Shown: positions 5,436 through 62,805, numbered from the stretch's first letter. The stretch is DNA of 64,000 nt from an uncultured Mycoplasma sp. (GCA_946500895.1 CAMMXG010000001.1:705-64704), one strand, 5' to 3'. A program made the numbers and translations. The notes: a model not told the origin generated them from the sequence alone.

Positions 5436-5513
5436 TCTCCTTTCTATGAATAAATCATATCATGATTTAATTTAAAAATCAATCTCAAAACATAAATTAG
5501 TTAAAAATTGACA

Positions 5514-6617
5514 TTAATTTTCACCATAAAAAATACTAATCGTACTAACAAACCGAACTCCAAATAGTTTATCATAATACATTTTCTTATTTTTAAGTAA
5601 TAAAATAAAGTGAATGAGATAAAAAAGGAAAATCACCAAAAGTCCTCCGCCATATAAAAGAAAGGTAATTCCTTGTAAATTATAATAACTTCGTATGTAA
5701 CTGATAAGCATAATAAATCCAAGTGGCAAAGCAAAATAATAAAGATACAAAAAGAAATATCTTAAAGTATTAAATAAAAGTCCAAGTCTAATAAATTCCA
5801 TTTTTACATTCAAAAATCTCATTCCAATTGTTGCATTTCCTCTTATTAATGGAATCAAAACATAATAGATTCCAAAAGAAATGAAAAACAACCAACGATT
5901 ATGAGTAAAAATAGATAATAAAACCGTAAAGATGAAATATAAAACCAAATCTAAGAAAAAGACGGTAATGCGGCGCAATCCAGAAACCTGTTCTCCCATT
6001 TTCAAAGATTCTTCATCTATTTTTTCTCTTGTAGGTAAATAATGATCTAAAGCTCCCATAATTAAAAATCCCAAAACTCCTCCTAAAGTATTTTGAATTA
6101 AATCGTCTATATCACACAAACGATATGGATTTGGATAAATAAAATATAATCCTGTAAGTTGTGTTAATTCAAAAAATAAACTTAACAAAAGTGAATAAAG
6201 AACAGTTTTCTTAAAACTACACTTAAAATAATATCTTAAATACATTCCAAAAGGAACAAACATCACAATATTAAATACAACAACATAAAAACTCGGATCG
6301 ATGATTGCTTTTATATAGGTTGATAGATCATTCCATACAAATGGTGTTTCATGAATTAAATCTACTATAAACTTAAAAGGTATCGTATTAATATAAGGAC
6401 CTGTATTTTTAAGTGCTTCTTCAAATGTTGGTAGTGGTAATATAACTAGAAAATAAATTGTAATCAAATATAAAATAAAAGTATAAATAATAAAGACTCT
6501 TAAAAAATGAATCGAACCATATTTATGATAATTATGTAACATAAAAGGAATCGTAAATAAAAAGGCAATAAAAGGAAAAGCAATAAATGCCGTAGTAATT
6601 GATTCAACATAACTCAT
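5514..6617 (-). CDS. polytopic membrane protein (VanZ-like N-terminal half, RDD-like C-terminal half)
   Basis: 367 aa, ~9 predicted TM helices. Composition and spacing resemble a VanZ+RDD fusion. The call rests on pattern only. Confidence 0.4.
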   Translation of the reverse strand: MSYVESITTAFIAFPFIAFLFTIPFMLHNYHKYGSIHFLRVFIIYTFILYLITIYFLVILPLPTFEEALKNTGPYINTIPFKFIVDLIHETPFVWNDLSTYIKAIIDPSFYVVVFNIVMFVPFGMYLRYYFKCSFKKTVLYSLLLSLFFELTQLTGLYFIYPNPYRLCDIDDLIQNTLGGVLGFLIMGALDHYLPTREKIDEESLKMGEQVSGLRRITVFFLDLVLYFIFTVLLSIFTHNRWLFFISFGIYYVLIPLIRGNATIGMRFLNVKMEFIRLGLLFNTLRYFFLYLYYFALPLGFIMLISYIRSYYNLQGITFLLYGGGLLVIFLFYLIHFILLLKNKKMYYDKLFGVRFVSTISIFYGEN

Positions 6618-50725: not shown

Positions 50726-51154
50726 ACTCTTCCCTCCACTTAATACATCTACGATTTACAACTTGATTATAAATTCATATATAGAAAAAAACAAGTGCTT
50801 TTTTAGACAAATTTTTGCCATTTTTTTAAGATGCCCATAAACACTTAGAAGAATGAAAAAAATTTTTTTGTTCGCTTTACGACAATTGACAATTATTTAA
50901 CAAAATGAACATTCGTGATTTCAAAAAAATCTTAAAAGGTGTTTTTTGAAAAAAGTAGGAACTCATTTTTTGGCTTAAATTAAGCAAATAGTAAAAAATA
51001 TTTTTCTAAAAAAACGAAGTTTGACTATTTTTTTAAAATACAAAAGGTGTTTTTTTAAAAGAAATATTATTTAGAAATTAAACCACAAAATACCTAGAAA
51101 TTAGTAAAAGACTTGCAAGGAATTACATTTTTTAATATAATTGATATATCAAAT

Positions 51155-51197
51155 GTCCTCGTAGCTCAGTAGGATAGAGCAATTGCCTCCTAAGCAA
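51155..51197 (+). tRNA. 5' half of a disrupted host tRNA-Arg(CCT) (acceptor, D-arm, anticodon stem-loop up to the att core)
   Basis: GTCCTCG-TA-GCTC-AGTAGGATA-GAGC-A-ATTGC-CTCCTAA-GCAA, then diverges. Pairs perfectly with the 3' half at 60814-60847. Confidence 0.55.
51186..51197 (+). repeat. attL core (CCTCCTAAGCAA), identical to 60802-60813
   Basis: 12-bp exact direct repeat at both junctions. Corresponds to the tRNA anticodon loop plus 3' stem. Confidence 0.5.
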
Positions 51198-51247
51198 AGG
51201 GTGACGTTTGAAAAATGATAAAAACCCCAATAAAATCGGGAAAATTT

Positions 51248-51324
51248 GTTCTCGTAACTCAGTTGGATAGAGTATCCCTCTCCTAAAGGGAAAGTCGGCA
51301 GTTCGAGCCTGCCCGAGAACACCA
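51248..51324 (+). tRNA. tRNA-Arg (anticodon CCT), complete, element-encoded
   Basis: Manual fold: acceptor GTTCTCG/CGAGAAC, D-stem ACTC/GAGT, anticodon stem TCCCT/AGGGA with loop CTCCTAA, T-stem GGCAG/CTGCC with loop TTCGAGC, discriminator A, encoded CCA. Confidence 0.85.
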
Positions 51325-51436
51325 TTATTGTATATAGAAGTCTTGTAAATAAAGCATTTACAAGATTTTTTTGTATTTTTAAAAGTGTTACAAAGTATCA
51401 CAATTTAACATCATATGGCACCTAATTCGGCACTTT

Positions 51437-51478
51437 TTTCGGCACCAATTTCGGCACTCGGTAAAACACTTCAAATTG
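51437..51478 (+). repeat. four direct GGCAC(C) repeats at ~12-bp spacing (putative integrase arm-type sites, left end)
   Basis: ATGGCACC / TTCGGCAC / TTCGGCACC / TTCGGCAC. Three more copies at the right end (60634-60671) in the same orientation. Confidence 0.4.
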
Positions 51479-51565
51479 TCTATAAAAATCAAGTAAAATA
51501 TGAGCAAATACAGAGCGAGGAATTTCGTGTTGGAACAAACCAAAATTAAAGATAAGGAGTAAAAA

Positions 51566-51796
51566 ATGAGAGAAGAATTTAAAAACATGAGGTTTAATAT
51601 CACAGAGGATATGTATAATACTATGCTTGAAATGTTAGTCATACATCAAATGCTAGAAGATTTTAACCCAACTAAAAAAGAAAAGAGAATGCTTAATAAA
51701 AAGTTGAAAAACTTGCAATATCATTTTACGTATGAGCTACAACTTCATAACCCCATGCAAATACACATTTATAATAAATTTATGAAAGACGAATAG
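51566..51796 (+). CDS. small hypothetical protein (76 aa)
   Basis: ORF with AAGGAG RBS 8 nt upstream. No recognisable domain. Confidence 0.3.
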   Translation: MREEFKNMRFNITEDMYNTMLEMLVIHQMLEDFNPTKKEKRMLNKKLKNLQYHFTYELQLHNPMQIHIYNKFMKDE

Positions 51797-51851
51797 ATAG
51801 GCATAACACCCTATCTTTTTATCTACTTTAATACTATATATATGAGGACAA

Positions 51852-52379
51852 TTATTTTTTCCAAACATTAAATATCGAATCTTCAAACTTTTCATATAAT
51901 GTTCGGGGTATTTCTGTACCTTTTGCAAATATAAAAGGGTTTACCAAAATGTATTGTTCCTCACTTTCTACTTGTATAATTTCTTTTTCTATTAAGCCAT
52001 TAATGGCTCTATCAAAAGTTTTTGAGTTCATATTTAATATTTTACGTAAATCTCTTTTATTTAAAAAGCCTGCAAACATATTGCATTGTATTTTGATTAA
52101 ATAACCACTATACTCGCCAAAACCAATATGACTTAGCATAGCAAATATAATTTGTGCCTCGCTACCTGTAAAACGCATTATTGATAAAATATCGCTTGTT
52201 TTACAAAATAACTTAGTGAAGGTTATATTTTGGTTTAGCTTTATATATTGTTTATCATGTTCTACTTGCGAGGCACGTCTAATACGCACCTCATCACCTG
52301 CATTTATTTCTTTACAAACATTGTAGTCTTTATCGACAATATAACCCTCGTGAGGCATTTGTTTTGGTAAATTTAACAT
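51852..52379 (-). CDS. RepL-like replication initiator / winged-helix DNA-binding protein
   Basis: 175 aa. C-terminal pattern 'IGFGEYSGYLI...FLNKRDLRKILNMNSKTFDRAINGLIEKEIIQV...YILVNPFIFAKG' parallels Firmicute plasmid RepL ('...IGGKKLKIVNYIL...IAKATGTSLQTVITTLKILEEGNIIKR...MLNPELLMRG'). Confidence 0.45.
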   Translation of the reverse strand: MLNLPKQMPHEGYIVDKDYNVCKEINAGDEVRIRRASQVEHDKQYIKLNQNITFTKLFCKTSDILSIMRFTGSEAQIIFAMLSHIGFGEYSGYLIKIQCNMFAGFLNKRDLRKILNMNSKTFDRAINGLIEKEIIQVESEEQYILVNPFIFAKGTEIPRTLYEKFEDSIFNVWKK

Positions 52380-52531
52380 TTAAAATCATCTCCTTTTTGT
52401 TAAAAATGTCTCACATCTGTAAATAATTAGGACAAAAATGGCATATATTAAATAGCCATTTTTTCTTTTATATAAAGGGAAAGTTCACTAAAAAATGATT
52501 TTATCTATCTAATATCTTATTTCAACATTCG

Positions 52532-52879
52532 CTAACACCTACCGCTAGAGCAGTAATCTCTACTTGCATTATACATACAAGTAGGACAATTTCTCTCGAA
52601 GCCTTGGTATTCAAGAGCCTTTGTGAATTGGCTACCAAACACACCTGAACCAAAACGTATCTTTGCTATCTCTTCTCTTATGACTTCTCTAACTATCTTT
52701 TCTACAAGTTGTTCGAGTTCACTTTTCTCGAACGGCTTGTTTCTTTTGGTATCTTTTTCTTTCATAGCCTTAACATTGACTTCGTTTATCATTTCAGCAA
52801 TGTCGTATTCAAGCACTTCGCCAAAGCCTTTCCTAATACTCTCTAAGTCAAACAAGTCTTTAAACTCGTATTGTCTCAT
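52532..52879 (-). CDS. hypothetical protein with C-terminal Cys cluster (CPTCMYNASRDYCSSGRC)
   Basis: Start placed at MRQYEF (GGAGG 8 nt upstream), not the longer track ORF. No domain assignment. Confidence 0.35.
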   Translation of the reverse strand: MRQYEFKDLFDLESIRKGFGEVLEYDIAEMINEVNVKAMKEKDTKRNKPFEKSELEQLVEKIVREVIREEIAKIRFGSGVFGSQFTKALEYQGFERNCPTCMYNASRDYCSSGRC

Positions 52880-52945
52880 GAATATCGCCTCCATTGATTT
52901 TTTTTTACAATTACATTTTAAACGTTTTTGGTACGTTCTGTTATC

Positions 52946-53110
52946 TCTAAACAATTCTTTTTTTCAAAAATTCTTTGAAATCTTCGTCTTTAACTAAGTA
53001 CCTACCGCTCAAACGTATAGCAGGAAGATGTCTATCACGAATTAGCTTTTGGATAGTCTTAACGTTAATTCCCGTCATGCAACTTATTTCCTTAGTGGAA
53101 TAAAATTTCA
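52946..53110 (-). CDS. excisionase/AlpA-like HTH_17 small DNA-binding protein (54 aa)
   Basis: Not in the ORF track. MKFYSTKEISCMTGINVKTIQKLIRDRHLPAIRLSGRYLVKDEDFKEFLKKRIV. CCTAGGAGGTG RBS. Similar to the xis-like protein at 59198. Confidence 0.45.
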
Positions 53111-53383
53111 TGTACTCACACCTCCTAGGACTTATATTCCTTTGCCCTTACTTGTTAGGAGTGAAAAGGCGGCTGCACTCCACTAAAAGAACCGCAAAAA
53201 AACAAGCCTGTTAAATAAGCCTGTTTTAGCCTTTTAGAGAAACAAATATCCGAGAGCATATAATCAATGTTATGGGAAGAAAAAAAGCTCCCACGCATGA
53301 CTACTCAAAGAATAATCAGTACAATGGGGGCATAGTTTTGCGGTTTTTCTCTTGACTTTCTTAAAAAAGGGGCGGTTGTTCCT

Positions 53384-54097
53384 TTACTCACTTTGCGTTT
53401 TCAATTTGCACATAGTAAATAGATATATTACAAGTATATAGATACTATCTCCAAAACCACCAAAAGTAATAGTTGATATTACACATAATATTACGATTAA
53501 AACGTGTAAAATTATGCTTTTATAACCAAATTTGTTTAGCATATTAATTATCACGCATGATATAATACCTACAATAAAAGCAATACCCTGATAAAGCCCA
53601 TGGGAAATCAAAGAAAAACTTTCTAAAACACTTGGCCATCTAATTATAATGGCAAGTATTAATAGCATAATTATAGCTATATCATATAGATTTATTTTTT
53701 TACCTTTTTTATTAATTATAATCAAAGTGGTATAAATTAAAACAATTGCATTATATAAGCTAAAGTTTTTAAGTAGAACTACCAGTAGTAATATCGTTAA
53801 AATTGCTGCGAAAATAGGAATGATTTTATATTCTTCTTTTAACTTTATTGCCAAATACCAAAATACATATATTAAACAAAGTGGAATTAATCCAACTCCC
53901 TCCATAACAAGTAGCAAAAGCAGTAGAATGAATAACCCTATTAAAATATAATCGAATATTCCTATATTATACTTTTGTTTTATTTCTTTAAAACTAGTAC
54001 TCTCATTTGTTGTTTGAAGCTCGATACCACAATGAGGACATTCTGTTGCAGTATCACTTACTTTTTTACCACATTCTTTACATTTAATTAATGCCAT
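53384..54097 (-). CDS. zinc-ribbon (CxxC...CxxC) N-terminus fused to polytopic membrane domain; paralog 3 of 3
   Basis: Starts MALIKCKECG...CPHCG, then ~6 TM helices. The track uses an upstream GTG start. Confidence 0.5.
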   Translation of the reverse strand: MALIKCKECGKKVSDTATECPHCGIELQTTNESTSFKEIKQKYNIGIFDYILIGLFILLLLLLVMEGVGLIPLCLIYVFWYLAIKLKEEYKIIPIFAAILTILLLVVLLKNFSLYNAIVLIYTTLIIINKKGKKINLYDIAIIMLLILAIIIRWPSVLESFSLISHGLYQGIAFIVGIISCVIINMLNKFGYKSIILHVLIVILCVISTITFGGFGDSIYILVIYLFTMCKLKTQSE

Positions 54098-54102
54098 ATC
54101 TA

Positions 54103-54627
54103 TCACTCTTTCTCATACATATCTCCATCACTTTCTCTTAGGCTATTTCCAACTATTGTAAATCTTTTCAAAACTTCGCCATCCGAGTAAACCCTTAAAG
54201 TATTTCCGCTTCTTTCATAAGTACAATCAAAAGTTATCGCACCTGTATAATAAGAACAAGTCTTATCTTTATACAATGTTATACTACTTCTGAAAGTATA
54301 TCCATATCTCGTACTTTCATGAACGTAAGTTCCCTCAAGTGAAGATGTGCTAAATATAAAGATAATCGCTACCACAAGTATTATTGCAACAATACCAATA
54401 ATTATCTTTTTCTTTTTATCAAGATGGTTAATAATATTTTTTCCCTTTATTTTTTCTTTCAAAAGATTATAACCACATTCAGGACAAACTTTGCTATCAG
54501 CTTTGACTTTTTCTCCACATTCAGGGCATTCTATTTTTAATTCTTCGTTTGGTGCTTTGCATTTTGGACAAGCCTTTGCTTTATCGCTCATTTCTGCTCC
54601 ACATTCTTTACATTTAATTAATGCCAT
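54103..54627 (-). CDS. double zinc-ribbon + single-TM + extracytoplasmic domain protein; paralog 2 of 3
   Basis: Starts MALIKCKECG...CPKC, second ribbon CPECG...CPECG. One TM, C-terminal ~80-aa domain. AGGAGA RBS before the MALIKC start. Confidence 0.5.
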   Translation of the reverse strand: MALIKCKECGAEMSDKAKACPKCKAPNEELKIECPECGEKVKADSKVCPECGYNLLKEKIKGKNIINHLDKKKKIIIGIVAIILVVAIIFIFSTSSLEGTYVHESTRYGYTFRSSITLYKDKTCSYYTGAITFDCTYERSGNTLRVYSDGEVLKRFTIVGNSLRESDGDMYEKE

Positions 54628-54643
54628 TTTTATTCTCCTAACC

Positions 54644-55240
54644 TTACTCCACAACTAAATTTTGATTTAACCAAGCTATTTGTTCTTCTGAAAAAGTATA
54701 GAATGTATCTTTAACACCATCTCTATTATCTTCAAGACAATGCTGATTACCATAAAAATTATCAAGCATGTCAAGATAATCTCTACCACTGTATGTCATT
54801 CCATCTTGGTTTCCATCATATACTGTAGGATTTACTAATTCACCAGTATCTGCATTTGTTAACAACCATTGAGTGGTATATTTATTGTTGTAATCATAAT
54901 ACCAAAAGTCAACAGAATACCTATCATCACATTTGCTTACATTAGTAATATATACTTTATTATTACGATGAAGGTTTGGGGCATCTATATCCCAATCTAC
55001 TTCCATTAACATATTTAAAACTTCTTGCGTTTCTTCATCTATCTCATTTTCGCTATCCTTAGAATTAGGGCTAAATGCAAATAAACATGTAAATCCTATA
55101 GCAATTATTCCAATAATTACCATTAGTATTTTCCCAACATTTTCATTTTTATTTTTTTCTATTTTTTTGCCACAATTGGGGCAGTTTTTTTCTTGATTGC
55201 TTATATCTGCACCACATTCACTACATTTAATTAATGCCAT
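54644..55240 (-). CDS. zinc-ribbon + single-TM + Cys-containing extracytoplasmic domain protein; paralog 1 of 3
   Basis: Starts MALIKCSECG...CPNCG. One TM, then a ~140-aa outside domain rich in D/N/Y/W. Confidence 0.5.
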   Translation of the reverse strand: MALIKCSECGADISNQEKNCPNCGKKIEKNKNENVGKILMVIIGIIAIGFTCLFAFSPNSKDSENEIDEETQEVLNMLMEVDWDIDAPNLHRNNKVYITNVSKCDDRYSVDFWYYDYNNKYTTQWLLTNADTGELVNPTVYDGNQDGMTYSGRDYLDMLDNFYGNQHCLEDNRDGVKDTFYTFSEEQIAWLNQNLVVE

Positions 55241-55246
55241 TTGAAA

Positions 55247-55477
55247 TTACACTCCTTTATCATATTTAAAAATTATCTTTTTTTGCAAATGTATTTCAGG
55301 AATTACCTCGTAAGTAAAACCTTTATTTAATAATTCTTGTCTCAAGACAGATTTTTTACTATCGATATTTTTAGGTATATCAAAACCAGTTAGCTTTTTA
55401 AACTCTTCATTGCTTAACTCAAAATCTTGTTTCTTGTCAAGTTTCTCATAAAGTGGTTCATATCTTTTCTTAGCCAT
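55247..55477 (-). CDS. small hypothetical protein (76 aa), first gene of the zinc-ribbon operon
   Basis: ORF 6 nt upstream of paralog 1. Divergent from the Xre gene. Confidence 0.3.
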   Translation of the reverse strand: MAKKRYEPLYEKLDKKQDFELSNEEFKKLTGFDIPKNIDSKKSVLRQELLNKGFTYEVIPEIHLQKKIIFKYDKGV

Positions 55478-55583
55478 TTTCTCAAACTCCTTTCTTGCTT
55501 AATATTATAACATAAAACCCCACCTATTGGTAGGGGTATTTGTTTATAAAAATATAAGATAATTATTAAAAGGCAGGTGGACT

Positions 55584-55847
55584 ATGGAACATTCTAAAGA
55601 CGATAATAATTACGTTTATTATTGGGTGGGAAAAAACATCAGAAAGCAAAGGAAATTAAAAGGTTGGACGCAAAGACAACTTGCCGAGAAGTGTAGTTTT
55701 AGTGAAAACTTTATCGGCGACTTAGAGAATGAAACATTTAAGACTTGCTCTCTAAACACTTTGTATCACATTTCCAAAGTGCTTGGTGTTCCTTTAAAAG
55801 TATTCTTTGAAGAATTAGACGAGAGCGATATTAAGCCAAAGAAATAA
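55584..55847 (+). CDS. Xre/cI-family HTH regulator of the element
   Basis: 87 aa. 'LKGWTQRQLAEKCSFSENFIGDLENE' HTH_XRE. Divergent arrangement with a 106-bp control region. Confidence 0.65.
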   Translation: MEHSKDDNNYVYYWVGKNIRKQRKLKGWTQRQLAEKCSFSENFIGDLENETFKTCSLNTLYHISKVLGVPLKVFFEELDESDIKPKK

Positions 55848-55924
55848 GATATGCAAAACACATATCTTTTTTATATCCTAATTGTATGATTTTATATTGG
55901 AGAATTATTAAATAAAAAAGAGGA

Positions 55925-56698
55925 CTATTCTTCCTCTTGCAAATGATTTTCAAAATAATCTTCTTCACTTACGATTTTAAGTTTAGCACCTGTATATTCG
56001 CCAAAGTTAGTTTCGTCTAATTTCTTAAAGTCAATGGAGTTAATATTCTCATTGATAAAATTATAAAGCAAATTAGCAAAGTTTTGCTTAGCTTCCATAT
56101 TATCATTAAAAATAAAGCCAAATAGTTCTTGGTATTCACTAGGTAAAATATTTTTATACAAAGGATATGTTATATTCATTTCCAAACTATCTTTTAAGAA
56201 TTTATCTACTAACTTATCTATTTTTTTGGTAGGTATTTTGGTTTTATTATCAAGTGCATTTCTATCATAAGTGATTATATTTTCTTGTACTAATTTTTCT
56301 AAAATAGGTATGATGTATTCTTCTTTGTATTGATTAATTTTTTCGGGATAAGTTTTAATTCTTCGCATTACTTCTACAAAATCACGAGCAATTCTTTTTT
56401 TAGAGCTTGGTGTTGCAGTACCTAAATAATCATAATCTTTTCCAAATATTAGTTCTCGCTCATTTAAGGAAAGGTTAATGTTTTCAAATTGTCTGATGTA
56501 ATTAAGAATATCTATTTTAAAATCGTATTCCTCGGTTTCGTCCTCAAGTCCGAGCTTTAGTATTTCGGGCATTACATAATCACTTACAAATTTTTGTATT
56601 TTTTCTAATTCTTTTCTTTCTGATGTATTATCTTTTCTTTTGAAAATATCCTCTTTTCTATTTTCTTTTAACATTTTCATAGTATTAATTGATTTCAT
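55925..56698 (-). CDS. hypothetical protein (257 aa), cargo gene
   Basis: No recognisable motif. Start is 2 nt after the stop of the 387-aa gene. Confidence 0.35.
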   Translation of the reverse strand: MKSINTMKMLKENRKEDIFKRKDNTSERKELEKIQKFVSDYVMPEILKLGLEDETEEYDFKIDILNYIRQFENINLSLNERELIFGKDYDYLGTATPSSKKRIARDFVEVMRRIKTYPEKINQYKEEYIIPILEKLVQENIITYDRNALDNKTKIPTKKIDKLVDKFLKDSLEMNITYPLYKNILPSEYQELFGFIFNDNMEAKQNFANLLYNFINENINSIDFKKLDETNFGEYTGAKLKIVSEEDYFENHLQEEE

Positions 56699-56699
56699 T

Positions 56700-57863
56700 T
56701 TAACTCACTCTTTCAAATAATTTTTGGTTTCTTTCAATAATCTTTTGTATTTTGATTAAAGCCTCTTGAACTTGGCTTTTGTCGTTCATTGTTGGAACGT
56801 TATCATATATTAAGGCATATACCTCTTTTAAATCTCGGACTATCTTTAAAAGCAAATCGGATCGTATTGTAAAAGTTAAATCATTCGTTGTAATTCTATC
56901 CATATTTATATAGAAAAAATATAAGTCAGAGTTAGACACATACTCATCAGGTTTAAAAAGGTATATCACATCAAGAATATGCTTATTCGTGCAAATATTA
57001 CTATATACATATTTTGTCAATGCTTTCATAGTTTTTGCAATTTCACTAGTATAAGCTTTACTTAATTGTTGGAAGTTTTCACTATTTTCCATATTGATAT
57101 TAAGTGTTTGTAAATAGGCATTAAAGTAATTGTCAGAGAAAGACATTTCATTTAAGCCAAACTCTTTTTTGCTATCGTCAAAAAATAATTTTACAATACC
57201 ATTATTTCCACAGGCAATTAGTTTATAAATTAAGCAAACGTCATTCATTTCTTGTTCTTGCAATTCCACTCCATATATATCATAAAACTCTTGCTTGTAC
57301 TTGATTATTTCTTCTTGTTGGTTAGGATATAGGTAATCAAGTTTACTTATATAGATTTTATAATCACTATCTTTGTTTTTCTTATAACTTATATTTTCTT
57401 TTACAACACTATCAAACTCAACACTTTCCAAGTCGCTCATTTCTTCTTCTACTTCTTTTTTTACGAAGTCAAGCTCATTGATATTAGATAGATAATCATA
57501 CCACTCAATAAACTTATTAAAAAGGTGTCGTGTATGGCTATCAATTAGATTTTTAATTGTTCTCGTGCTATATTTATACTTTCCTGTGTCTACATCATCA
57601 CTTTCAAGACTACCATATAAGGCAATAGTTAGAGTATCCAATATCTCTATTTTTTTATCATAGAGGTTTTTGTTACTATCGGCAAAGAGAATGTTATTGA
57701 TTTTAATTAGTGTTTTAAACACATCAAGCATAATGTCATATTGCTCTTTGTATTCCTTTCTAAAATCAGTTATTTCAAGAGTGTGTTCTAACGCATTAAT
57801 ATACTTGCTATTTCTAAAAATATTGTCCGATAAGGTATTATGTCTATATCCCATTAAAATCAC
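56700..57863 (-). CDS. hypothetical protein (387 aa), cargo gene
   Basis: No recognisable motif, acidic. Forms a tight pair with the 257-aa gene. Confidence 0.35.
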   Translation of the reverse strand: MILMGYRHNTLSDNIFRNSKYINALEHTLEITDFRKEYKEQYDIMLDVFKTLIKINNILFADSNKNLYDKKIEILDTLTIALYGSLESDDVDTGKYKYSTRTIKNLIDSHTRHLFNKFIEWYDYLSNINELDFVKKEVEEEMSDLESVEFDSVVKENISYKKNKDSDYKIYISKLDYLYPNQQEEIIKYKQEFYDIYGVELQEQEMNDVCLIYKLIACGNNGIVKLFFDDSKKEFGLNEMSFSDNYFNAYLQTLNINMENSENFQQLSKAYTSEIAKTMKALTKYVYSNICTNKHILDVIYLFKPDEYVSNSDLYFFYINMDRITTNDLTFTIRSDLLLKIVRDLKEVYALIYDNVPTMNDKSQVQEALIKIQKIIERNQKLFERVS

Positions 57864-57920
57864 TCCTACAAGCCAAATTATAGCATAAAAAAAGGCTATC
57901 TCAAACAGGATAGCAACGTT

Positions 57921-58265
57921 TTATTGTAATTCTTTATCAATAAAGGCTTTAATACTTTTATCAGAGCAGTCCTCTACGTTTTGTTTGTCTAAGCTATCAA
58001 ACTTTAAGCTAAGTTCTTCGGCATAGCTTGAAGCCTTTTCCTTATCCATATTCTTTTCGCTAATTAAATATTTTTCGATAAAGTCAAAAAGATATTCTTC
58101 CCACATCATTTGCCTGTCTTTATTAGAATAATCATTCGTTAAATAAAGATACATAAGATAGTCGCCTTTATCAGAAGAATAGTTTTGTAAAAAGCCTTTG
58201 TATTCTTCTCGCTCTTTCTCTAACTTTTTAAGCTCGTTTGTCAGTTCTTGCATTTTCATATACAT
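57921..58265 (-). CDS. hypothetical charged/coiled-coil protein (114 aa)
   Basis: ORF only. Confidence 0.3.
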   Translation of the reverse strand: MYMKMQELTNELKKLEKEREEYKGFLQNYSSDKGDYLMYLYLTNDYSNKDRQMMWEEYLFDFIEKYLISEKNMDKEKASSYAEELSLKFDSLDKQNVEDCSDKSIKAFIDKELQ

Positions 58266-58380
58266 ACCTCTTTTCTACATCAATATTATAGCATTAAAAA
58301 AGCTATCTTGCTATAAGATAACTTTAATTTTGTTTTTTAATAGCTTATTTTAGCTTGTTTATAGTTTAAAATAGTTTAAA

Positions 58381-58650
58381 TTAGTCTAATTCACTTAGAA
58401 TCTCGTTATACTTCATAAAATCATTGTATAGCTTTTGGATAGCAGTATATAAACTCGCTATTCTACTATCAATACTATTCTTAGAAGTATTATTCTTTTG
58501 TTGTACGCTCAAGAATTTTTGAAATTTCTTAATTGTTGCTTTAGATAACTCTTTTTCAGTATATCTATTAAGCATAACTTCAACCATAACCTCTCTAATA
58601 TCGTTTAAATCTAAAATATTTTTTGTTTTACTATCTAACATTCTAATCAC
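58381..58650 (-). CDS. hypothetical protein (89 aa)
   Basis: ORF only. First gene of the leftward cargo operon. Confidence 0.3.
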   Translation of the reverse strand: MIRMLDSKTKNILDLNDIREVMVEVMLNRYTEKELSKATIKKFQKFLSVQQKNNTSKNSIDSRIASLYTAIQKLYNDFMKYNEILSELD

Positions 58651-58950
58651 TTTCCTTTCTTTGTGGGGTTGCCACGTTTTGTTAGATTTTACAAACGTTT
58701 AAGTCGACTTGTTCGTTTGTGATTTCATTCTAGCAAAGAAAAGCGAGAAAAAAAGATACATAAAAAAAAGATAAGTGTACCATTCTTGAAAACTGCAAAC
58801 CCTTTATTTACAGGACTTTCAGAGCTTTTTGATACCGATTTTTCGAGTTAAAAGTTTAAAAATAGAATAAAATTTTTTTAACATTTATTAGCAGGAGTAC
58901 ACTCATTTTTTATCCTTATATATATTTAATAGCTGTCGCAGAAAAAAACT

Positions 58951-58996
58951 ATCATAAACTATCACAAACTATTACAAAGTATCACAAAGTGTTAAA
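58951..58996 (+). repeat. five tandem ~10-bp iteron-like direct repeats (AAACTATCAT/AAACTATCAC/AAACTATTAC/AAAGTATCAC/AAAGTGTTAA)
   Basis: Read directly. A two-unit copy (AAAGTGTTAC/AAAGTATCAC) occurs at the other end of the element (51402-51421). Confidence 0.4.
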
Positions 58997-59197
58997 TTTT
59001 TTTTAAATCTTTTTTTTAAATCTCATTCGATAAATCGGAACAGGCATTTTTAAGAAATCCCCATAAATACTAGGTTTATGACTTGAAAAACTCTTTCAAA
59101 ATTAGTGCAGAAAAAAATTTTTTTCGTTCGAGAACGTGCTTTTTTTATCTTGTATTATGTAATCACTCAAGCAAGAGAGAAAGGACGAGTGAGAACA

Positions 59198-59395
59198 ATG
59201 ACAAAAAAGATATGTGATATTACAGAGGTAGCAAGTTATTTACAGGTTTCTGTTTCCGAGGTTAGAAAGTTAGTGAGATCAAAAAGAATACCACACTTTA
59301 GAATTGGAAATAGACTAAAGTTTGACTTAATCAAAATTAATTCTTGGCTCGATGATTTAGAGGCACAAGAAAGCAAAAGAGTATTTATTTTCTAA
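59198..59395 (+). CDS. xis: excisionase-like HTH_17 DNA-binding protein
   Basis: MTKKICDITEVASYLQVSVSEVRKLVRSKRIPHFRIGNRLKFD. AAAGGA RBS. Immediately upstream of int. The track's longer N-terminus is unlikely. Confidence 0.55.
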   Translation: MTKKICDITEVASYLQVSVSEVRKLVRSKRIPHFRIGNRLKFDLIKINSWLDDLEAQESKRVFIF

Positions 59396-59499
59396 ATAAA
59401 AAAATAGCGGTTTTACTAGGAATTATGGGCAAAATATGATATAATTATATTAGATAATTTGAAGTTTTGCTCATATAAGAAAGGAGTTAAAAAAAGATT

Positions 59500-60627
59500 A
59501 TGAGCATAAAAAGATTATCAAATAATAAATATAAAATAACAATAGAACTTGGATATGATATTTTAGGTAATAGAAAGAGAAAAACAGAAACATTTAATGG
59601 TACTAAAGCGGAGGCAACTATAAGAGAGGCAGAACTTATGAAAAAGTTTTACCACATCGGTCAGTCAAGTAATATAAACGACTTAAATTTCGAGGAATAC
59701 TCTCAAATTTTTGTAGCAAAATATTGTGATAAAATTGGTCTAGTTACTAAAGATGGCTACGTAAGGTCATTAAAAATGATTATTCCAATAATAGGTAAAA
59801 TTAAACTCAATAAAATTACCCCTCTTGTTTTAGACAATATGTATCAAAAATTAAAAATTGGCGAAAAAGGACAAGAGCTTGGCTACCACTCAATGTATGC
59901 TTATTACAAACTAATAAATGTTATGTTTAATCAAGCTATCAAATGGGAGCTTATTGATAAAAACCCAAACTTGAAAGCAAATAAACCTAAAAAAGAAAAA
60001 ACAGAGCGTAGATATTATGACTTAGAGCAAGTTCACAAATTATTATCTTGCCTATCTAATGAAAGAATAAAGTATAGAACTCTGATAACTCTAGCTTTAG
60101 ATAGTGGCATGAGAAGAAGTGAAATTTGTGCTTTACGTTGGAGCGATGTTGATTTTGATACCAATACGATTAAAATCAATAAATCTTTAAAGGTTGTTAA
60201 GGGTGTTGTTGACGAGGAAACTACAAAAACAGAAAGTTCAAAAAGAGAAATTATTGTTAGTAATGCTACCATTAATCTTTTGAAAAAGTATAAAGAATGG
60301 CAAGACAATTATATTAAAGAAATGGGTAAAAAGTGGATAGGTACTGATAGAGTATTTACTTCTAAAGAGGGCAACTATATGTACCCAAGCACTTGCGACC
60401 ATACTTTAAGAAAAATAATCAAAAAATATAACCTAGACCCTATTTGCTTTCACGAACTAAGACATACATCTGCAAGCATCTTAATTCATAAAGGTATAAA
60501 CCCAAAAGCAGTAAGTCAAAGATTAGGTCATGCCGACACAAGTATTACAATGGAAATCTATTCACATACCTTTGATGTTACCAAAAAAGAAAGTGCTAAA
60601 GCATTCGACGAAGTATTAAGTTATTAA
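59500..60627 (+). CDS. int: tyrosine-type site-specific recombinase/integrase
   Basis: 375 aa. N-terminal SAM-like/arm-binding region. Catalytic 'LDSGMRRSEICALRW' (R), 'HELRHTSAS' (HxxR), 'LGHADTSITMEIYSH' (Y). Transcribed toward attR. Confidence 0.85.
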   Translation: MSIKRLSNNKYKITIELGYDILGNRKRKTETFNGTKAEATIREAELMKKFYHIGQSSNINDLNFEEYSQIFVAKYCDKIGLVTKDGYVRSLKMIIPIIGKIKLNKITPLVLDNMYQKLKIGEKGQELGYHSMYAYYKLINVMFNQAIKWELIDKNPNLKANKPKKEKTERRYYDLEQVHKLLSCLSNERIKYRTLITLALDSGMRRSEICALRWSDVDFDTNTIKINKSLKVVKGVVDEETTKTESSKREIIVSNATINLLKKYKEWQDNYIKEMGKKWIGTDRVFTSKEGNYMYPSTCDHTLRKIIKKYNLDPICFHELRHTSASILIHKGINPKAVSQRLGHADTSITMEIYSHTFDVTKKESAKAFDEVLSY

Positions 60628-60633
60628 AAAAAT

Positions 60634-60671
60634 GGCACCAAAAAAAAGAAATGGCACCAATTTTCGGCACC
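60634..60671 (+). repeat. three GGCACC direct repeats between int and attR (putative arm-type sites, right end)
   Basis: AATGGCACC...AATGGCACC...TTCGGCACC. Same motif and orientation as 51437-51478. Confidence 0.4.
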
Positions 60672-60801
60672 AACCTAAAAAATCAAGTTCTAAAAGTTAG
60701 TAATAAAGAATAATAAAATGCTAAAAAAAACCTTAAATAAAGGGAAAACAAGCCTTTCTATATATTAAAAAAATGGTGTTCTTGTTGGAATAGAACACAC
60801 C

Positions 60802-60813
60802 CCTCCTAAGCAA
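60802..60813 (+). repeat. attR core (CCTCCTAAGCAA)
   Basis: Exact copy of 51186-51197. Confidence 0.5.
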
Positions 60814-60847
60814 TAGGTCGTTGGTTCGATTCCAATCGGGGACGCCA
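60802..60847 (+). tRNA. 3' half of the disrupted host tRNA-Arg(CCT) (anticodon loop to CCA)
   Basis: CTCCTAA-GCAAT-AGGTC-GTTGG-TTCGATT-CCAAT-CGGGGAC-G-CCA. Acceptor 3' strand pairs with GTCCTCG at 51155. No 5' half is present locally. Confidence 0.55.
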
Positions 60848-60921
60848 TTAAAAGCACAAATAAGAGCATAACCACTCTTATTTTTTCATGTCGTTTTACT
60901 TCTCTTTTAAATTATGCTAAA

Positions 60922-62805
60922 ATGAACATTGTGATGTTTATGAAAGAACTACTTAATAAACTTAAAAACTTTTTCAAATGGCTATTTAGATGGCTAAAAT
61001 ATATTATCATAATTATAATTAGTTTTATTTACTCACTATTAAAAAAAGAAGAAACGTCAAAAATAGAAAAAATCAAAAAAGAACTAAAACCAATCAAAAA
61101 AGAAAATAGAAACAATATAATAGAAATACCCAATGAAAATCCAAATAATTTAACCAAAAATTCTATTTTTAAGCCAACCAAAGAAATATTAAAGGAAGAA
61201 ATCCTTATATTTTATTGCAAAGAAAAAAATATTAAAAAATACGAACTAGAAAAACAAGATGAAAAAATAATAGAATATCTTGAAGAAAAATTAATTCTTA
61301 TTCTAGAAAAAGAAATTCTAGAAAAACATATAGAAACAAAAGAATTATTGGAAGAACAAATCAAAAAATTAGGAACAGATGAACTTTTAGTTTTAGAAGA
61401 GAAAAAGAAGATACCCACTCTTCTCATTAATGAAACATTAGAAAAGCAAAATGAAAATAGTTCTAACTTAATATTTTCTAACCCTACTTACCAATCCTAT
61501 AAAGAAAAGACAATTACCCAACAAATAGAAAAAGCAACAAGCATATCAGCAGAAAATCTTAAACCTAAAACAAATCAAGAAGCATCAACTATCAATATGA
61601 ATCCTTTCAATCCATCTTTTAATTTAGAAAAAGAAGAAAAATATCCGAATCAAGAAATAGAAACTCTAGTTCAAACAACACCCTTAATTATTTCTACCGC
61701 TATTCTTAAAGAAGAATTAGAAAAACCTCAAACAGATATAAAACAATCTAATGAAGAAATAAAAGAGTATACGCTAGAAGCGATGGATTCTAAAGAAAAA
61801 GTTAAAGAAATCCAAGAAGAAAAAATTAAAACAAGTTTAAAAGAAGAAAAGCAAGAAAATAAACAAGAAAAAGCAGAAGTAAAACAAGAGGAAAAAAAGC
61901 CTGAAGAAGTAAAATTCATATCCATTAATTTATACCCAATTGAAAATGAAACCAAAAGATTAGAACTAGAACAATCGGAATTAGAAGAAAAACGAGAATT
62001 TGAAGATAAAAATTATGACGAACTATTACTAAGAGTTGAGAATCTTTTAAAAGAAATTGAAAAAATAAAAACACTAAATTTAAAACCTGAAGATAAAAAA
62101 CAAGTTTTAGCAAATGAATCTAAATTAAAAAATTTACAAAATAATATTGAAAACAAAAAAGCAGTAGATTTAGAAGCAGAAAAAACACTTTTAGAAGAAA
62201 ATATTACAGAAGAAGAAATTGCTGGACTACTAGAAAACTTAAAAAAACTACATTTAGAACACCAAATTGATTTAAACGAACATTTAATAAATAAAGCAGA
62301 AGAACTAGAAAATTTAAGCAAGGAAAAAGTAGAAAAAATTGAAAAAGAATTAATCAAAATCAAACTAAAGAAAGCAAGCCGAAGTTTAGAACTTCCCTCT
62401 TTAATCCTTCTCCCCTTTATACGTAATCGCTATTTTTTTATGTTTACCGCCGGAATATTCGTAAACAATCACTTCAAATTATTAGATCATCTCTTAAAGC
62501 ATAAATCAGTTACCTACACTCCTCCTCTACTTGAACACATAAAAAAAGGAAGTGATTCTCTAGAAGAAGCCTTAAATTTAACAATTACAAATCTTTCCTT
62601 TTTAAATTATTTAGAACAAAATATTTTATCAAAATATCCGGAATTACCTCTAGATGAAGAATATTTATTATACATAAATAAACTTCGTTATTCTCTTCTA
62701 AAAAATGAAGAAAAACTATTAAAGAAAAAGCAAACAATCGAAAAATACAATTTAAAATATCAAATAAAAATACGCAAATTAAAAAAGAAGAAAAAAGTTG
62801 CATAG
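60922..62805 (+). CDS. Lys/Glu-rich coiled-coil protein with N-terminal TM helix
   Basis: 627 aa. TM 'YIIIIIISFIYSLL'. Long KE-rich low-complexity helical region, then a less biased C-terminal ~170 aa. Confidence 0.4.
   Translation: MNIVMFMKELLNKLKNFFKWLFRWLKYIIIIIISFIYSLLKKEETSKIEKIKKELKPIKKENRNNIIEIPNENPNNLTKNSIFKPTKEILKEEILIFYCKEKNIKKYELEKQDEKIIEYLEEKLILILEKEILEKHIETKELLEEQIKKLGTDELLVLEEKKKIPTLLINETLEKQNENSSNLIFSNPTYQSYKEKTITQQIEKATSISAENLKPKTNQEASTINMNPFNPSFNLEKEEKYPNQEIETLVQTTPLIISTAILKEELEKPQTDIKQSNEEIKEYTLEAMDSKEKVKEIQEEKIKTSLKEEKQENKQEKAEVKQEEKKPEEVKFISINLYPIENETKRLELEQSELEEKREFEDKNYDELLLRVENLLKEIEKIKTLNLKPEDKKQVLANESKLKNLQNNIENKKAVDLEAEKTLLEENITEEEIAGLLENLKKLHLEHQIDLNEHLINKAEELENLSKEKVEKIEKELIKIKLKKASRSLELPSLILLPFIRNRYFFMFTAGIFVNNHFKLLDHLLKHKSVTYTPPLLEHIKKGSDSLEEALNLTITNLSFLNYLEQNILSKYPELPLDEEYLLYINKLRYSLLKNEEKLLKKKQTIEKYNLKYQIKIRKLKKKKKVA

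Follow-up and report, generated by a model that had tools for sequence, protein, structure and literature searches.

A coupled gene pair with a co-exchanged cassette as the predicted backbone of a new integrative element family in uncultured gut Bacilli

In Staphylococcus aureus pathogenicity islands (SaPIs), specificity for the partner is set by Stl, and for the integrative and mobilizable elements (IMEs) of streptococci the exchange of integration modules around a constant core has been described. Phage-inducible chromosomal islands (PICIs) are represented in SatelliteFinder by a model with five core components (PMC10085698). Here, we describe four minus-strand open reading frames (ORFs) at positions 55925-58650 of a 64,000-nucleotide (nt) stretch of DNA from an uncultured Mycoplasma sp. 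(hereafter, the window; all positions are counted from its first letter), which lie on an integrative element spanning ~51200-60804, between its xis/int genes (59105-60627, plus strand) and a gene for an Xre-type regulator (55584-55847, plus strand). The working names A, B, p89 and p114 are used for the 387-, 257-, 89- and 114-amino-acid (aa) genes, respectively, and related loci are denoted by L numbers; the coordinates of all features are collected in Table 1. We propose, based on comparisons among these loci, that the A-B pair is a novel and conserved part of the backbone of a new integrative-element family and that it contains an exchangeable specificity cassette; a role as dispensable defence cargo appears unlikely. 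To our knowledge, essentially no mobile-element biology is known for the small-genome uncultured gut Bacilli, and a backbone with almost no annotated function represents a clean example of mobile-element "dark matter".

The element resembles PICIs and SaPIs in being a small (~9.6 kb) island that is integrated site-specifically in a tRNA gene, that encodes an integrase, an HTH_17 protein of the Xis/AlpA-like kind and an Xre regulator with divergent promoters, that has no structural or lysis genes, and in which a fast-diversifying module could set partner specificity. However, the only PICI components detected here are the integrase and the AlpA/Xis-like helix-turn-helix (HTH) protein; primase/replicase, TerS and capsid-morphogenesis genes were not detected, and a search for a PICI pri-rep gave no primase or helicase profile match among the element ORFs that were tested (ten in Pfam/PHROGs and a different ten in NCBIfam). 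Further differences are that xis-int read outward at one end, with A-B diverging from them, that no copy of the element was found in viral contig collections, and that neither A nor B resembles a SaPI/PICI protein of PHROGs, PDB or BFVD in sequence or fold. The likeness to Firmicutes IMEs consists of a constant core that is combined with exchangeable integration modules (tyrosine integrase plus Xis vs. a large serine recombinase) and of a conserved, inverted-repeat non-coding region upstream of an operon, at the place where an origin of transfer (oriT) would be expected. In contrast to these IMEs, no relaxase, coupling or replication protein of a known family was detected, A is acidic and without relaxase motifs, and nothing points to conjugative systems in these hosts. 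The original prediction of a small integrative element without recognisable replication, packaging or structural genes in the 55925-58650 stretch holds. An assignment of the element to the inoviruses, plectroviruses or plasmaviruses was also considered and ruled out, as there is no morphogenesis ATPase and no phage-database match.

Homologs of A were found only in metagenome-assembled genomes (MAGs) of uncultured gut Bacilli with chromosomes of 1.3-1.5 Mb (labelled Clostridium sp. CAG:914, Ca. Scybalousia or "uncultured Bacilli"), and a scan of metagenomes added only three further loci. A occupies one and the same position in each of the 20+ related loci that continue past it. All loci that are long enough share a constant gene order, namely the recombination module, one or more small genes, A, B and, on the opposite strand, Xre, followed by a variable array of Zn-ribbon/transmembrane (TM) or other surface proteins, the 54-aa HTH_17 gene, usually p140, the 175-aa winged-helix gene and an opposite-strand 76-aa gene. 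The recombination module itself comes in two forms, a tyrosine integrase with Xis and, in L010 and L017, a large serine recombinase, and the A proteins of relatives at deep divergence are only 29-57% identical; B, or a shorter B-like ORF (a 137-aa form in L019), follows A in nearly all loci, L021 having only a 67-aa ORF at this place. L039, a locus found independently of A by means of the 175-aa gene, has the same A-B pair. Where A is 99% identical, meanwhile, p114 and the Zn-ribbon array are the only differences between elements, and the slot between xis and A varies as well, holding p89 and p114 in the window, a 172-aa gene in L001, genes of 96 and 115 aa in L017, and one of 107 aa in L021. 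Because the position of A is constant across recombinase swap and divergence while the neighbouring slots turn over, A-B appears to be backbone rather than cargo, i.e., the fixed backbone of what would be a previously undescribed family of ~9-10 kb integrative elements, flanked by two variable cargo slots (the Zn-ribbon array to the left of Xre and, between xis and A, a slot for small genes). The original prediction had assigned the pair to the cargo of a variable region, which is at odds with an A homolog in the same place in every related element retrieved, including the serine-recombinase versions and L039. What survives of that region is p114 and, more loosely, p89, both in a varying slot, whereas the A-B slot is constant and the other varying slot lies beyond Xre.

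The sequence of the pair is much less constant than its position. Compared to L028, the window shows 97-99% nucleotide identity through p89 and the first ~600 nt of A (to residue ~197), followed by a sharp fall to 45-70% from there to the end of B, and 96-99% identity again from the terminator into Xre; the hairpin at 55938-55918 is thus also the right-hand edge of the swapped A/B cassette. The breakpoint is recurrent and falls within A, not at the A/B gene boundary. Among 105 pairs from 15 elements, which are not phylogenetically independent of each other, the identity of the C-half of A follows that of B (Spearman 0.81; partial r 0.93 when the A N-half is controlled for; maximum difference in any pair 0.20), as opposed to a partial r of 0.21 for the N-half, for which 48 pairs differ from B by at least 0.3. 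For instance, the window and L028 share 0.96 identity in the N-half but 0.46 in both the C-half and B, and L001 and L032 show the opposite pattern (0.69, 0.90 and 0.96, respectively). Seven B types are distinguishable among the 15 elements, and these cross-cut the lineages of the A N-half, in both directions, as well as the recombinase type. As mosaics, these discrete types are unambiguous: A consists of two modules, and its C-half is exchanged together with B as a matched cassette. That is, a variable C-terminal domain is co-inherited with the downstream gene, the C-halves and B proteins of different types all being homologous (divergent alleles, not unrelated domains), and the C-terminal 25 residues of A are conserved. 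A breakpoint within A, coupled to the conserved translational coupling of the two genes (below), points to a physical interaction between the C-half of A and B and to selection for exchange of this unit. The immunity/specificity cassettes of temperate phages and satellites, recognition modules exchanged as mosaics among nearly identical genomes, are alike in having sharp mosaic edges (here, 96-99% flanks against a 45-70% cassette) and types that cross-cut backbone lineages; however, the A/B unit is not a repressor/operator pair, the adjacent Xre is 97% identical, and neither A nor B has a detectable DNA-binding domain.

A constant N-half, a C-half swapped with a coupled downstream gene, and small helical proteins upstream are also seen in polymorphic toxin/immunity cassettes such as those of the Firmicutes LXG toxins with their Lap partners. 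A might, alternatively, be a polymorphic toxin-like protein and B its immunity protein or antidote, serving interbacterial competition of the type VII secretion system (T7SS)/LXG kind or addiction, with p89 and p114 as small helical targeting partners; in L001, small genes that read as WXG100-like from their sequence adjoin the related element. We consider this explanation very improbable since A, p89 and p114 match none of PF04740, WXG100, DUF3130 and DUF3958, no LXG or toxin-domain match was obtained even at permissive thresholds, and there is no secretion signal. Further, the variants are allelic rather than unrelated and share a conserved A C-terminus, A is kept in lineages with a truncated or replaced B, the element backbone holds the pair as a fixed part, and B is larger than typical immunity proteins.

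The explanation that we favour, tentatively and short of considering it probable, is that A-B forms a non-enzymatic hetero-complex that recognises a variable partner, most likely a protein of a helper phage or of a competing element, for satellite-style sensing, hijacking or interference. A helper phage or competing element would be the most plausible partner because the island is small and without structural genes. A and B would bind each other via the C-half of A, and the complex would bind rather than catalyse, as suggested by its acidic and helical character, the few invariant residues and the lack of a recognisable catalytic motif. The constant N-half would engage an invariant component, either of the element itself or of the host, whereas the C-half and B would recognise the variable partner (helper phage, competitor or host factor). 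A-B would be constitutively transcribable, with its function built into the element's own life cycle, and the diversification of the C-half and B is what an arms-race recognition module would look like, as fixed element biology and not as exchangeable cargo. The core status of the pair together with its swappable cassette predicts type-specific binding of A-B to the variable partner, and helper sensing or interference, if true, would make A-B the defining module of a new satellite-like family in a clade without described ones. It is also conceivable, although rather doubtful, that the constant N-terminal "output" and the exchangeable C-domain/B "input" make up a new two-protein recognition system that senses or neutralises a phage, rival-element or host-defence protein. 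Such a system would sense its partner to decide on induction of the island or on which invader is blocked, and the element family and its mechanism of propagation would then fall outside any described satellite or IME class.

Several observations weigh against a hetero-complex that recognises a helper or competitor. We know of no helper phage for these uncultured hosts, nor of a variable partner of A-B. Neither A nor the 175-aa protein gave a tblastn match in phage and plasmid collections, A was not found in IMG/VR viral contigs, and neither the predicted attP junction nor the iteron array was found in IMG/VR; these negative results leave nothing that points to packaging or transfer. The proposed complex is deduced from linkage, which adjacency alone would partly explain, and the shared ancestry of the compared pairs affects the cassette statistics as well. 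Most of the related loci were retrieved through A itself, so that its presence in every element rests on few independent checks, and B is truncated in L019 and replaced in L021 while A persists. Finally, "all-helical, non-enzymatic" is a weak description for A because its structural model is poor (pLDDT 56).

The original prediction had instead put forward, as a hypothesis, a defence, abortive-infection or phage-interference module; as accessory anti-phage cargo, A-B would benefit the host. Consistent with such a role, the two genes are coupled and acidic, and have a strong promoter to themselves that is not part of the Xre-divergent switch, and the diversification of the C-half and B resembles the sensor diversification of defence systems. 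Nonetheless, we find it improbable, given that the A slot is constant in every relative retrieved, down to the lowest identities and across swapped recombinases, while the neighbouring slots vary among nearly identical elements. In addition, none of the four proteins matched a PADLOC model (PADLOC-DB v2, E<=0.1; 0 families), no effector domain (nuclease, NTPase, TM or TIR) was recognised, and the pair occurs only within this element family. Searches for defence cargo are hence redirected to the Zn-ribbon membrane-protein array and to the genes of small size that lie between xis and A.

The four minus-strand ORFs lie where the original prediction had placed them, and are real genes rather than chance ORFs because A has 372 homologs (none of them named, none with a Pfam domain) and dN/dS is 0.1-0.4 across A, B and p89 (A 0.16-0.39; p89 0.14-0.24), values that indicate purifying selection on these three genes. 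For B, the homologs comprise nine cluster representatives plus the copies in the loci. Two of the sizes change, however: while 114 and 257 aa stand, A starts at ATG 57854 (MGYRHNTL..., with the ribosome-binding site (RBS) GGAG), a start common to all homologs that gives 384 instead of 387 aa, and p89 most likely starts at ATG 58641, giving 86 instead of 89 aa. The translational coupling of A and B is borne out by a TAA-A-ATG junction, although with one base and not 2 nt between stop and start, by an RBS within the last codons of A, and by a stop-to-start spacing of -1 to +2 nt in all ten related loci examined. The acidity noted for both proteins was likewise reproduced (isoelectric point (pI) 4.98 for A and 5.07 for B); p114 is acidic too (4.66) and p89 is basic (9.19).

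A single leftward four-gene operon, in contrast, is not what the promoter layout suggests. The four genes are not one operon because a hairpin with T-run (57914-57895), overlapping an extended -10 promoter (57904-57877), separates p114 from A, and the 18-nt promoter box (repeat D19) recurs 5' of p114 at 58302-58285. We thus distinguish three transcription units (p89, p114 and the A-B bicistron), with A-B transcribed as its own bicistron from a strong predicted sigma-A extended -10 promoter, and p114 being a strain-specific insertion. No sharing of operators was found between the Xre switch region and the promoters of A, p114 and p89. The hairpin, T-run and TGnTATAAT design starts each leftward unit (57914-57877, 58302-58285 and, for the p76 operon, 55535-55500), and could be described as an "insulated" extended -10 promoter.

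Sequence and structure searches returned A and B as orphans, in agreement with the earlier statement that they have no recognisable domain. Nothing significant was obtained for any of the four proteins in the Pfam, PHROGs and NCBIfam profile libraries (nor, as noted above, in PADLOC), no family recurred when profile libraries were run on 18, 10 and 19 members of the A family and on nine B proteins, and the sole match of A, B or the A N-half to PDB sequence profiles was a spurious one to a repetitive protein. An exhaustive phmmer search with A against 1.84 billion representatives gave 55 matches, ~30 of them full length. The homologies named beforehand as pointing to a satellite life-cycle role (helper-phage redirection proteins, terminase small subunits, primases) gave no significant match for A or B; among PHROG head-and-packaging families there was nothing significant for A, B, p89 or p114, the terS matches being only a weak HTH overlap (Xis) and one B homolog at E=0.042. 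Structure prediction and Foldseek, as had been suggested for both proteins, yielded no fold match: the AlphaFold2 (AF2) model of B is confident (predicted local distance difference test (pLDDT) 80.7, predicted template modelling score (pTM) 0.76; all-helical, with a 42-residue central helix) and has no neighbour in PDB or BFVD, and that of A is poor (pLDDT 55.9; helical with one hairpin, residues 40-145 at pLDDT 70-87) and found no structural neighbour. An origin of A and B by internal duplication was rejected, as hhalign indicates that the two are unrelated (probability 4%).

Only seven columns are invariant across the broad A family (Y18, I50, Y95, L142, D148, N218 and F314). Most of them are aromatic or hydrophobic, the polar ones being Y18, Y95, D148 and N218, and mean pairwise identity over residues 1-24 is 84%; as a catalytic signature, the seven residues look thin. 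An ImmA-like protease and an NTPase were both ruled out for A by the absence of an HExxH motif and of a Walker A motif, respectively.

The acidity (pI 4.7-5.1) and helical nature of A, B and p114 would also suit an anti-defence or establishment module, possibly of DNA-mimic-like inhibitors of host restriction or defence that are expressed upon entry. A core position on a mobile element, a strong promoter, and type diversification that fits an arms race with variable host defences are all compatible with such a module. It nevertheless seems to us decidedly improbable, for there is no similarity to ArdA, Ocr, KlcA or any PHROG/Pfam anti-restriction family, B has no structural match in PDB or BFVD, and the pair (384 + 257 aa) is larger than typical DNA-mimic inhibitors.

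Another alternative is that A, with B as accessory, is a DNA-processing enzyme, i.e., a novel replication initiator or a conjugative relaxase, with p89 as its small DNA-binding accessory. The layout invites this idea: ori/oriT-like DNA, in the form of iterons, 13-mers and an inverted-repeat leader, lies directly upstream and is followed by a small basic protein and then a large one, while Y18 and Y95 are invariant, the N-terminus of A is extremely conserved, and the element has no other detectable relaxase or primase. On the other hand, A is acidic (net charge -15), with no net positive charge in its first 60 residues and no invariant His/Asp/Glu cluster, and no Pfam, NCBIfam or PHROG match to replication initiator or relaxase families (HUH, Rep_trans, Rep_3, RepA_N, primase-polymerase, MOB) was obtained for A, B or family members, with the HUH, Rep_trans, Rep_3, primase and relaxase profiles not matched even weakly. 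Some elements that have A (L010, L012, L014, L019) lack the iteron array and leader or have degenerate forms of them, and a variable C-half/B cassette beside conserved DNA sites is unlike a Rep/ori specificity pair. A better candidate for the replication initiator or loader is the separate 175-aa winged-helix protein, which has sub-threshold matches to a PHROG DnaD-like family (0.006) and to the phage O N-terminus (0.08), and whose homologs match Rep3_N (0.026) and DnaD_N (0.00096); in the distant element L021, a DnaB_C helicase (2e-38) is found in the operon of the 175-aa gene. These initiator-like matches, the L021 helicase and the iteron-like arrays suggest that replication is probably encoded elsewhere on the element and not by A-B. 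Overall, we give a DNA-processing role for A a low probability, and a binding rather than catalytic complex remains the explanation that we favour. The L021 helicase gene (5481-6350; DnaB_C/AAA_25) lies 5' of an HTH_17 gene, in an element the A of which is 29-32% identical.

Table 1. Positions of the genes, signals and repeats of the element in the window.
Feature	Position	Strand	Remarks
Terminator-like hairpin with T-run	55918-55938	.	called on the minus strand; closes B, in the short interval between the convergent genes B and Xre
Gene B	55925-56698	-	257 aa, acidic, all-helical (AF2); coupled to A; fast-evolving, discrete types
A C-module, variable	56700-57254	-	~residues 200-384; co-inherited with B; 45-70% identity to L028
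Gene A, ORF	56700-57863	-	387 aa from GTG
Gene A, corrected start	56700-57854	-	384 aa, acidic, predicted mostly helical; ATG 57854
A N-module, constant	57255-57854	-	~residues 1-200; 97-99% nt identity to L028 up to ~57262
Hairpin with T-run, then extended -10 promoter of the A-B unit	57877-57914	-	TTGAGA-16-TGcTATAAT, near-consensus; same architecture directly 5' of A in L025
p114 cassette, 408 bp	57895-58302	-	flanked by 18-nt direct repeat of the promoter box; exact ends ambiguous within the repeat
p114	57921-58265	-	114 aa, acidic; strain-specific accessory gene
Phased AAACTA/AAGCTA repeats	58341-58389	-	period of ~10-11 bp; lie between p89 and the promoter downstream of it
p89, ORF	58381-58650	-	89 aa from GTG
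p89, likely start	58381-58641	-	86 aa from ATG 58641; basic
p89 leader, ~300 nt, non-coding	58651-58945	-	stem ACAAAC...GTTTGT and RBS-proximal hairpin GTGGCAACCCCAC
Iteron-like array	58946-59023	.	4-5 copies of 10-bp unit AAACTATCAC and AT-rich 13-mers; candidate origin/operator
Xis	from 59198	+	HTH_17, 65 aa from ATG 59198; HTH_17 region 59105-59395
Tyrosine integrase	59500-60627	+	PF00589 1.5e-32; phrog_1 3.8e-73
Xre-type HTH regulator	55584-55847	+	HTH_3 match; convergent with B, divergent from the p76/Zn-ribbon operon
Three paralogous N-terminal Zn-ribbon proteins	53384-55240	-	internal hydrophobic stretch in all; at least one (Zn240) strongly hydrophobic
HTH_17 protein, 54 aa	52947-53111	.	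PF12728 called on homologs
Winged-helix protein, 175 aa	51852-52379	-	weak initiator/loader-like profile matches
attL core CCTCCTAAGCAA	51188-51199	+	anticodon loop of the split host tRNA-Arg(CCT); attR copy 60804-60815

Alignment with L025 shows p114 to be a 408-bp insertion just behind the -10 box that carries a second copy of the hairpin and promoter. The gene is missing from L025, L026, L029 and L030, and elements without it are 100% identical on the p89 side and ~98-99% identical from A onward; weak partial homologs of p114 occur in L010, L014 and L019. The insertion duplicated one hairpin/T-run/TGnTATAAT unit.

p89 is found in many but not all elements, being missing from L001, L004-L006 and L008; L001 and L005 have neither p89 nor its leader. 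The leader is conserved beyond any protein of the element, includes a stem with a compensatory change, and had no match in Rfam. A single copy of its 3' hairpin-plus-RBS 24-mer, GTGGYARCCCCACAAAGAAAGGAA, is found in each element with p89, and the 24-mer is also present, with homologous flanks, in three IMG/VR phage contigs of 78-127 kb, where it lies 5' of unrelated genes of 120-132 aa (L036 2893-2916, L037 2768-2791 and L038 5051-5074). The leader could thus be a regulatory one common to phages and the element, and its motif in phage contigs hints at cross-talk with phages. A relationship between p89 and the phage protein that follows the common motif was considered and rejected, as the sequences are unrelated. 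The AAACTA repeats number 3-7 copies in relatives and are confined to p89-bearing elements; in L007 (9859-9938), L009 (9243-9318), L015 (9826-9907) and L018 (9866-9947), they are located 3' of p89 and 5' of the A promoter.

Between the recombination module and p89, the iteron-like unit TTTrTGATAC recurs with a 10/20-bp period, and a second iteron-like array, of two copies, is located at the far end of the element (51382-51403). Upon excision as a circle, attP-int-xis would come to lie between the two arrays. Even serine-recombinase variants have kept the arrays, and L001 (9089-9143 and 16950-16975) and others also hold iteron-like arrays.

The element splits the host tRNA-Arg(CCT) gene in the anticodon loop: the outer halves (51154-51201 and 60790-60848), when joined, give a perfect tRNA in ARAGORN, and neither junction alone does. 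Just inside attL, the element carries its own, sequence-distinct tRNA-Arg(CCT) (51248-51324), which apparently replaces the split host gene, and GGCACC repeats are present inside both element ends. No circular contig was found among the 30 loci fetched. In the serine-recombinase relatives (L017 6984-8588 and 15989-17620; L010 5156-8583), a second, apparently N-terminally truncated serine-recombinase gene adjoins the element, which suggests nested insertion with an unchanged A-B core. At the site where the recombination module would be expected, L039 (280-2290) carries an IS21-family insertion (IstB and a Mu-transposase-like gene).

The Zn-ribbon paralogs of the window, like those of L025, L029, L005-L007 and L039, share an N-terminal MALIKCxECG...CPxCG pattern, followed by a hydrophobic segment that is predicted to be TM, and have variable C-terminal parts. 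This Zn-ribbon/TM array is where the cargo truly varies, with surface or superinfection-exclusion functions as candidates. Directly outside attR (60922-62805), a 627-aa ORF encodes a Glu/Lys-rich, low-complexity protein with an N-terminal hydrophobic segment.

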